Assembly: GCF_003334305.1 (NCBI RefSeq)
Contig: NZ_QOWS01000029.1
Source of the DNA: Escherichia coli
GTDB lineage: Bacteria > Pseudomonadota > Gammaproteobacteria > Enterobacterales > Enterobacteriaceae
Length of the DNA: 43,616 nucleotides
Direction: 5' to 3' (one strand)
A program made the translations under genes and the position numbers. This document shows, in pieces, positions 41,770 through 41,913 of the stretch. The notes below the pieces were generated by a model. That model did no database searches and was not told the origin of the DNA. It saw only the letters and a list, made by a program, of their open reading frames with translations. Every line of letters begins with the position of its first letter. Positions within the stretch are counted from its first letter, which is position 1.

Positions 41770-41913
41770 TGGATGATGAAAAAAATAATTCCCGCCGTAG
41801 TCTGTTTGTTGCTTTGTAGTTGCACGACCTTTCCGCAAGCTGTCGCTCCGGTAAACGGTGATGCCTCCAATTAGTTGAATTAAGGATATAATACTCGCTT
41901 TTAAGGTTGTTTC

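Follow-up and report, generated by a model that had tools for sequence, protein, structure and literature searches.

We found that a 33-aa open reading frame (ORF) immediately downstream of yiiX in Escherichia coli contig NZ_QOWS01000029.1 is very probably the non-functional 5' stub of a ~207-aa TIGR02117/DUF2459 lipoprotein gene, cut in a rearrangement linked to an IS1 element and an Rhs toxin element. The stretch analyzed here, which we refer to as the window, is 43,616 nucleotides long. The observations establish what the stub is, the exact base at which it ends, that the 3' part of the gene has been lost, that no target duplication is present, and that the genomes share a single haplotype. 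The stub is an ordinary, already catalogued pseudogene remnant within a known Rhs locus, present in thousands of sequenced genomes, and its significance goes little beyond annotation. It marks the site where the Rhs locus between yiiX and priA displaced a resident gene, and the region between yiiX and rpmE, which exists in three states (intact DUF2459 gene; stub, IS1H, and Rhs; clean absence), could serve as a lineage marker. The features of the window that bear on this are as follows.

41162..41769, + strand: yiiX (permuted papain-like enzyme, YiiX family); loss of 1 bp between 41555 and 41556 makes it a pseudogene
41773..41874, + strand: chimeric ORF of 33 aa, MMKKIIPAVVCLLLCSCTTFPQAVAPVNGDASN, consisting of 28 native codons, 5 IS1 codons (GDASN), and TAG
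41773..41856, + strand: remaining 5' portion (native) of the TIGR02117/DUF2459 lipoprotein gene, 84 bases aligned to intact alleles
41857..42620, + strand: degenerate element of the IS1 family (IS1H type; 764 bp), from its inverted repeats and PGAP annotation
41914..42186, + strand: insA ORF of the IS1, 90 aa (NCBIfam NF033558, NF050000)
42676..42998, - strand: dsORF-f3, the ORF downstream of Rhs and a candidate immunity gene, broken by internal stops (annotated by PGAP in strains E2865 and A7)
43000..43616, - strand: 3' end of an RhsF-type Rhs core gene, from its translation; runs off the window

A truncated TIGR02117/DUF2459 gene downstream of yiiX

The initial annotation had placed an ORF with a lipoprotein-type start and an LLCSC lipobox at 41774-41875, directly after yiiX, and had described it as running for about 29 codons before entering the inverted repeat of an insertion sequence and stopping at a TAG within it. 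The ORF exists, with coordinates one base lower (41773-41874) and a native run of 28 codons (41773-41856) rather than 29. It does follow yiiX directly: the yiiX stop codon TAA occupies 41767-41769, and the ORF starts 3 nt beyond it. The frame also enters the IS as described. The codons GGT GAT GCC TCC AAT (41857-41871) are derived from IS1 and the TAG stop (41872-41874) is part of the left inverted repeat of IS1, so that 18 IS1 bases (41857-41874) are used altogether.

The native fragment comprises a signal peptide, the lipobox L-C-S-C, and 11 linker residues. Its N-terminus, MMKK / IIPAVVCLL / L-C-S-C, fits the published lipobox regular expression, with the n-region, the h-region, and the Cys (codon 41821-41823) all present; the Cys at the lipobox -2 position is unusual, yet permitted by the expression. 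By these criteria the stub is a predicted lipoprotein precursor N-terminus. The pattern alone is weak evidence, because of the ~750 frames in the window that start with ATG and reach 20 aa or more, seven others (~1%) also fit it. We take the stub as a real feature on account of its identity with the 5' end of a complete lipoprotein gene in other genomes.

A search of IS-free relatives had been proposed as a check, and wherever the sequence occurs free of the IS we found that it runs on into a full 207-aa gene between yiiX and rpmE. The intact gene occupies this position in E. coli AR_0061, BL21, and ATCC 11303, and in E. fergusonii, where the gene order is metJ-yiiX-DUF2459-rpmE-priA (protein accessions WP_000720774.1 for the E. 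coli B strains and AR_0061, and B7LUR7 for E. fergusonii). The AR_0061 gene (L002 4077-4700; 624 bp, 207 aa) is annotated by PGAP as “TIGR02117 family protein”, lies 6 nt downstream of yiiX and 54 nt upstream of rpmE, and encodes a product starting MKKIIPAVVCLLLCSCSTFPQAVAPVNNDFAGQ; the start assigned by PGAP corresponds to the second ATG of the stub, at 41776. The stub is identical to the E. fergusonii allele at 84/84 bases and to the AR_0061 allele at 83/84. In the alignment the window follows the intact gene up to CCGGTAAAC, which ends in GTAAAC, and then diverges at 41857, the first base of IS1. The earlier reading of the ORF as the 5' remnant of a small lipoprotein gene is thus upheld for the remnant, by this 84-base identity, and has to be corrected for the size of the gene, which encodes 207 aa.

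The intact protein scores 225 bits against TIGR02117 in NCBIfam (cut-off 131), and its Pfam DUF2459 domain covers residues 36-196. Because the break falls after residue 27/28, the domain lies wholly downstream of it and none is kept in the stub; the conserved SHGWHTG motif, which begins at about residue 40 of family members, is also beyond the breakpoint and missing. An NCBIfam scan with the 33-aa stub gave no TIGR02117 match. Since its intact orthologue scores above the cut-off, we describe the stub as a fragment of a TIGR02117 member and not as a member protein, and its assignment as orthologous to the TIGR02117/DUF2459 gene is based on nucleotide identity and conserved position. Like the intact gene of AR_0061, the B strains, and E. 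fergusonii, it sits after yiiX and has the signal peptide and lipobox. Unlike the intact gene, it keeps only 28 of 208 codons and has lost DUF2459 and SHGWHTG.

The TIGR02117 family is widespread in Proteobacteria (1220 matches at E<=1e-10). The strict lipobox pattern is present in 82 of 127 full-length homologues, and inspection by eye shows an evident L-x-G/A-C at the equivalent place in several more; the lipobox Cys is conserved family-wide, in most full-length members. DUF2459 has been classed as a family of papain-like fold whose role is unknown (PMC10318531). A sequence search of the PDB with the intact protein returned no solved relative. YiiX also belongs to a family classed as papain-like; nonetheless, the two proteins share no BLASTP similarity, and we rejected the idea that they are recent tandem paralogues.

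The DUF2459 gene also adjoins rpmE in Salmonella. Because it occupies the same place in E. fergusonii and adjoins rpmE in Salmonella, we regard it as ancestral at this locus, and both the stub and the K-12-type absence of the gene as derived states. In a Salmonella read assembly (L017 1010-2800), an arylsulfotransferase gene, not yiiX, precedes the DUF2459 gene; the position of the gene beside rpmE therefore predates its position beside yiiX. The notion of a conserved yiiX-DUF2459 operon pair was dropped in view of this arrangement and of a methanotroph in which the neighbors are unrelated.

The IS1 and Rhs elements beside the stub

The element that follows the stub resembles IS1, for which a length of ~768 bp and ~23-bp terminal repeats beginning GGTGATG are expected: it is 764 bp long, and its terminal inverted repeats, GGTGATGCCTCCAATTAGTTGAA and GGTGATGACTCCAATTAGTAGAA, match at 21/23 positions. 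Because insA reads on the + strand, the end at 41857 is the left end (IRL). InsA scores 85 bits against NF033558 (IS1 family transposase) and 33.4 bits against NF050000 (zinc-binding domain; cut-off 28). The A6C frameshift motif AAAAAAC is found at 42162-42168. The insB' frame is broken near 42390, leaving ORFs at 42213-42398 and 42392-42706, and the InsAB' frame is not intact. PGAP calls the element [quoted passage not shown], with the IS1H-like label appearing in some genomes. This IS1H-type element is a dead copy that gives a poor alignment to IS1A; among the matches listed, each genome has one. Simple insertion leaves a target duplication of 8-9 bp; at the ends of the window IS1 we looked for a 9-bp duplication and found none: the flanks GCTCCGGTAAAC and CTTCTGATAAGC differ, as do the flanking bases written as ...CGGTAAAC and CTTCTGATA.... 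Weaker matches (~93%) to the first ~100 bp of the IS1 (query 78-181) were seen in O157:H7 plasmids of ~91-96 kb.

Beyond the IS1 lies an Rhs element, an assignment made on sequence features: a PxxxxDPxGL-type core/tip boundary motif, a C-terminal tip of ~150 aa after it, and a small downstream ORF. The full Rhs core gene is 4185 bp long in strain A7, and in both E2865 and A7 the “RHS element core protein” annotated by PGAP reaches to 160 bp from rpmE. The tip (43000-43470, - strand; ~150 aa, containing GDYHTHGF) had no NCBIfam match. The downstream ORF, dsORF-f3, is likely the immunity gene for this tip. It carries stops in the window, in E2865, and in O157:H7, and is intact (324 bp) in strains CUVET20-PYO4 and SCU-301, in which the Rhs core is truncated.

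The Rhs locus between yiiX and priA presumably corresponds to the RhsF of the Hill laboratory. It is “locus 11” in the relevant part of Jackson et al. 2009 (PMC2935791), and, as there, the Rhs core and dsORF-f3 of the window haplotype lie between yiiX and rpmE/priA. In that part of the paper, locus 11 is given by its flanking genes, and neither IS1 nor rpmE is mentioned. A text search of the literature for RhsF together with IS1 returned nothing relevant.

Three states of the yiiX-rpmE locus and the origin of the stub

We examined the locus in 5426 complete E. coli genomes. A 161-bp query covering the end of yiiX and the ORF had matches in 3653 of them. The intact gene is kept in ~289 genomes, the stub-IS1-Rhs haplotype is found in ~2175 (about 40%), and neither gene nor stub is present in ~2960, K-12 included. 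The genomes carrying each junction were counted as follows.

Stub-IS1 junction: 2175 genomes
IS1-dsORF-f3 junction: 2163 genomes
Rhs-rpmE junction: 2177 genomes
Intact gene 3' end adjoining rpmE: 289 genomes

The 5' end of the gene is present in 2467 genomes, close to the sum of 289 and 2177. Because the junctions co-occur and the sums agree, the stub haplotype represents a single ancient rearranged configuration. It is common to O157:H7, O111, O103, and many commensals. In E2865 and A7 the order is yiiX, 87 bp, frameshifted IS1, dsORF-f3, Rhs core, and rpmE, and A7, an orangutan isolate, is 100% identical to the window over 23.6 kb. In JJ1886 and K-12 MG1655, yiiX and rpmE are 60 bp apart with nothing between them. 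The initial annotation would have been contradicted had the same sequence been non-coding spacer in IS-free genomes. What we found in such genomes was either the whole gene or no such sequence.

Neither the 5426 E. coli genomes nor an exact-pattern scan of species-representative genomes gave an IS-free version of the DNA to the right of the IS1. The scan returned only SFGN01000258.1 (L013; 2240 bp), which is labelled “MAG: Lachnospiraceae bacterium” and is 99.9% identical to window 41357-43594, from yiiX through the stub and IS1 into Rhs. Almost certainly this is E. coli sequence that was mis-binned into a Firmicutes MAG.

How the gene came to be cut is suggested by what is present on either side. 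In the stub-bearing genomes, gene bases 1-81 alone are matched, at one place per genome, and the remaining 543 bp were therefore lost and not moved elsewhere. Beyond the Rhs element, the sequence again becomes homologous to the intact haplotype only at the rpmE terminator, CAGGCAC.... The initial annotation had spoken of an IS-associated rearrangement, and this accords with the missing duplication, the absent 3' part, and the Rhs element on the far side of the IS. A DUF2459 lipoprotein gene originally stood between yiiX and the terminator of rpmE. We propose that an IS1H-type IS1 and an RhsF-type Rhs element came to occupy the locus through a single ancestral event or several closely linked ones. 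The gene was cut and lost everything beyond codon 28 (543 bp), along with ~20 bp of spacer, and the IS1 left end was joined straight to the stub. As a consequence of this joining, the frame enters the IS1 repeat for 5 codons and meets TAG.

IS1-promoted adjacent deletions and IS-truncated pseudogenes are classical IS1 behavior. As in such deletions, the window has an IS1 end abutting a truncated gene, no duplication, and loss of the adjacent DNA. It departs from the classical cases in that its IS is a divergent, dead element of the IS1H type and that no intermediate state is at hand to prove the mechanism. The absence of a duplication does not fit simple insertion and suggests instead either an IS1-promoted adjacent deletion or an IS1 that arrived with the Rhs segment. 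The adjacent deletion would be the most economical of these, with arrival alongside the Rhs segment as the alternative. Among the 5426 E. coli genomes we found no intermediate haplotype (Rhs with an intact gene, or Rhs downstream without IS1), and for this reason the order of events and the deletion mechanism are what we infer from the end product.

Two other accounts of the ORF were weighed against truncation by rearrangement. In one, a simple IS1 insertion split the gene and its 3' half survives beyond the IS or elsewhere. Such a split does occur in this gene: E. coli strain 8600 (NZ_CM167998.1, L009 1501-2901) has an independent, recent IS1A insertion in its TIGR02117 gene, which is otherwise intact; CGAGGCGGG flanks the insertion as a 9-bp duplication, and both gene halves are kept. 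The TIGR02117 gene has thus been struck by IS1 elements more than once, and in both cases an IS1-family element inactivated it. The strain 8600 case differs from the window, however, in being a simple insertion at another codon, with a 9-bp duplication and both halves retained. In the window haplotype there is no such duplication, the DNA to the right of the IS is Rhs-associated, no remnant of the gene lies between the start of Rhs and rpmE, and the stub genomes have no second match to the gene. Together with the return of homology only on the rpmE side, these observations rule out a simple insertion with a surviving 3' half, to which we give practically no probability. The other account takes the sequence for ordinary spacer without coding function, or for an ORF that arose by chance and only happens to resemble a lipoprotein start. 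The looseness of the lipobox pattern speaks for it, as does an NCBIfam scan with the 33-aa peptide alone, which gave sub-threshold matches only (E 0.02-0.12), to unrelated lipoprotein signal peptides. Against it, 84/84 bases are identical to the 5' end of a complete gene with a family assignment in the same chromosomal position, and the IS-free genomes that lack the gene (K-12, JJ1886) wholly lack the stub sequence too. The alignment and base identity rule this account out, and we consider it just as exceedingly improbable as the simple split.

Coding potential of the stub and the neighboring yiiX gene

That the ORF derives from a truncated gene leaves the question of whether it could be active as it stands. 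If it is transcribed by read-through from yiiX and then translated, the most the stub could give is a prolipoprotein of 33 aa, from which a mature peptide of 17 residues lacking any enzymatic domain would result. One could imagine a live small gene, co-transcribed with yiiX, whose product is exported, lipidated at Cys17 to give the 17-residue lipopeptide CTTFPQAVAPVNGDASN, functional, and selected in ~40% of genomes. The signal peptide and lipobox are complete, the ORF is open with its lipobox kept in 6/6 stub-bearing E. coli genomes examined, including lineages ~6% divergent in the stub, and the E24377A annotation lists a “putative lipoprotein”. Against this, neither ATG is preceded by a visible Shine-Dalgarno sequence, a crude scan of 41000-42100 found no + strand promoter-like site, the C-terminus is accidental IS1 sequence, PGAP makes no call, and an 84-bp frame is expected to stay open by chance. 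The substitutions in the divergent lineages are also mostly non-synonymous, placing a Pro in the hydrophobic core and removing one ATG, and the upstream yiiX is frameshifted in this strain and offers no translational coupling. We therefore regard a live, selected gene as very unlikely. A slim chance, of the same order, attaches to the narrower proposal that read-through from yiiX yields a 33-aa prolipoprotein whose processing leaves a lipopeptide of 17 residues, its tail encoded by IS1. If true, this would be a new micro-lipoprotein made by an IS junction, present in ~40% of sequenced E. coli, including O157:H7.

A non-functional remnant, our preferred reading, agrees with the substitutions seen. 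The stubs of CUVET20-PYO4 and SCU-301 carry five base changes, of which four alter amino acids (I->V, A->P, V->A) and one is silent; the A->P change falls in the hydrophobic core. The ST2747 stub has lost the second ATG. These very few changes, from six genomes, weakly suggest relaxed constraint or neutral drift. GenBank already contains an entry with exactly these 33 aa, ABV18848.1 “putative lipoprotein” of E. coli E24377A, and the UniRef cluster of the same sequence is named “Conjugal transfer protein”. Both labels are misleading, because the ORF is a pseudogene fragment. PGAP does not call it in E2865 or A7 and leaves the 84 bp unannotated.

The yiiX gene of the window is 608 bp long instead of 609, and its frame is broken into two ORFs, one of 149 aa and one of 82 aa. 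When aligned with the E2865 and AR_0061 genes it proved to lack a single T (GTGGTGTGG -> GTGG-GTGG), and the frameshifted yiiX ends ~160 nt upstream of the stub. PGAP also reports yiiX as “frameshifted” in A7. It is intact in the other stub-bearing genomes whose annotation was compared, so the deletion is either peculiar to this strain or an error of assembly. In the intact operon, translation of the DUF2459 gene probably depends on coupling to yiiX, given their spacing of 3-6 nt; with yiiX frameshifted in this strain, any translational coupling to the stub is lost.

Several further observations concern the region upstream. The metJ-yiiX spacer (41103-41161) is 59 bp in the window, JJ1886, ST2747, and E. 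fergusonii, and 183 bp in E2865 (L001 3279-3461), AR_0061, and K-12. The extra ~124 bp looks like a REP (BIME) palindrome pair, gcctgatgcgctacgcttatcaggcctac ... tgtaggccggataaggcgttcacgccgcatccggca. In E2865 (L006 32353-33825), synteny with the window breaks upstream of yijF, where IS621 joins dppA to yijF; this junction implies a large IS-associated rearrangement in E2865 that does not affect the window. Rfam places the OxyS sRNA at 7982-8091 (+ strand) of the window and a cobalamin riboswitch, presumably the btuB leader, at 2803-2992 (- strand), both ordinary for the region.
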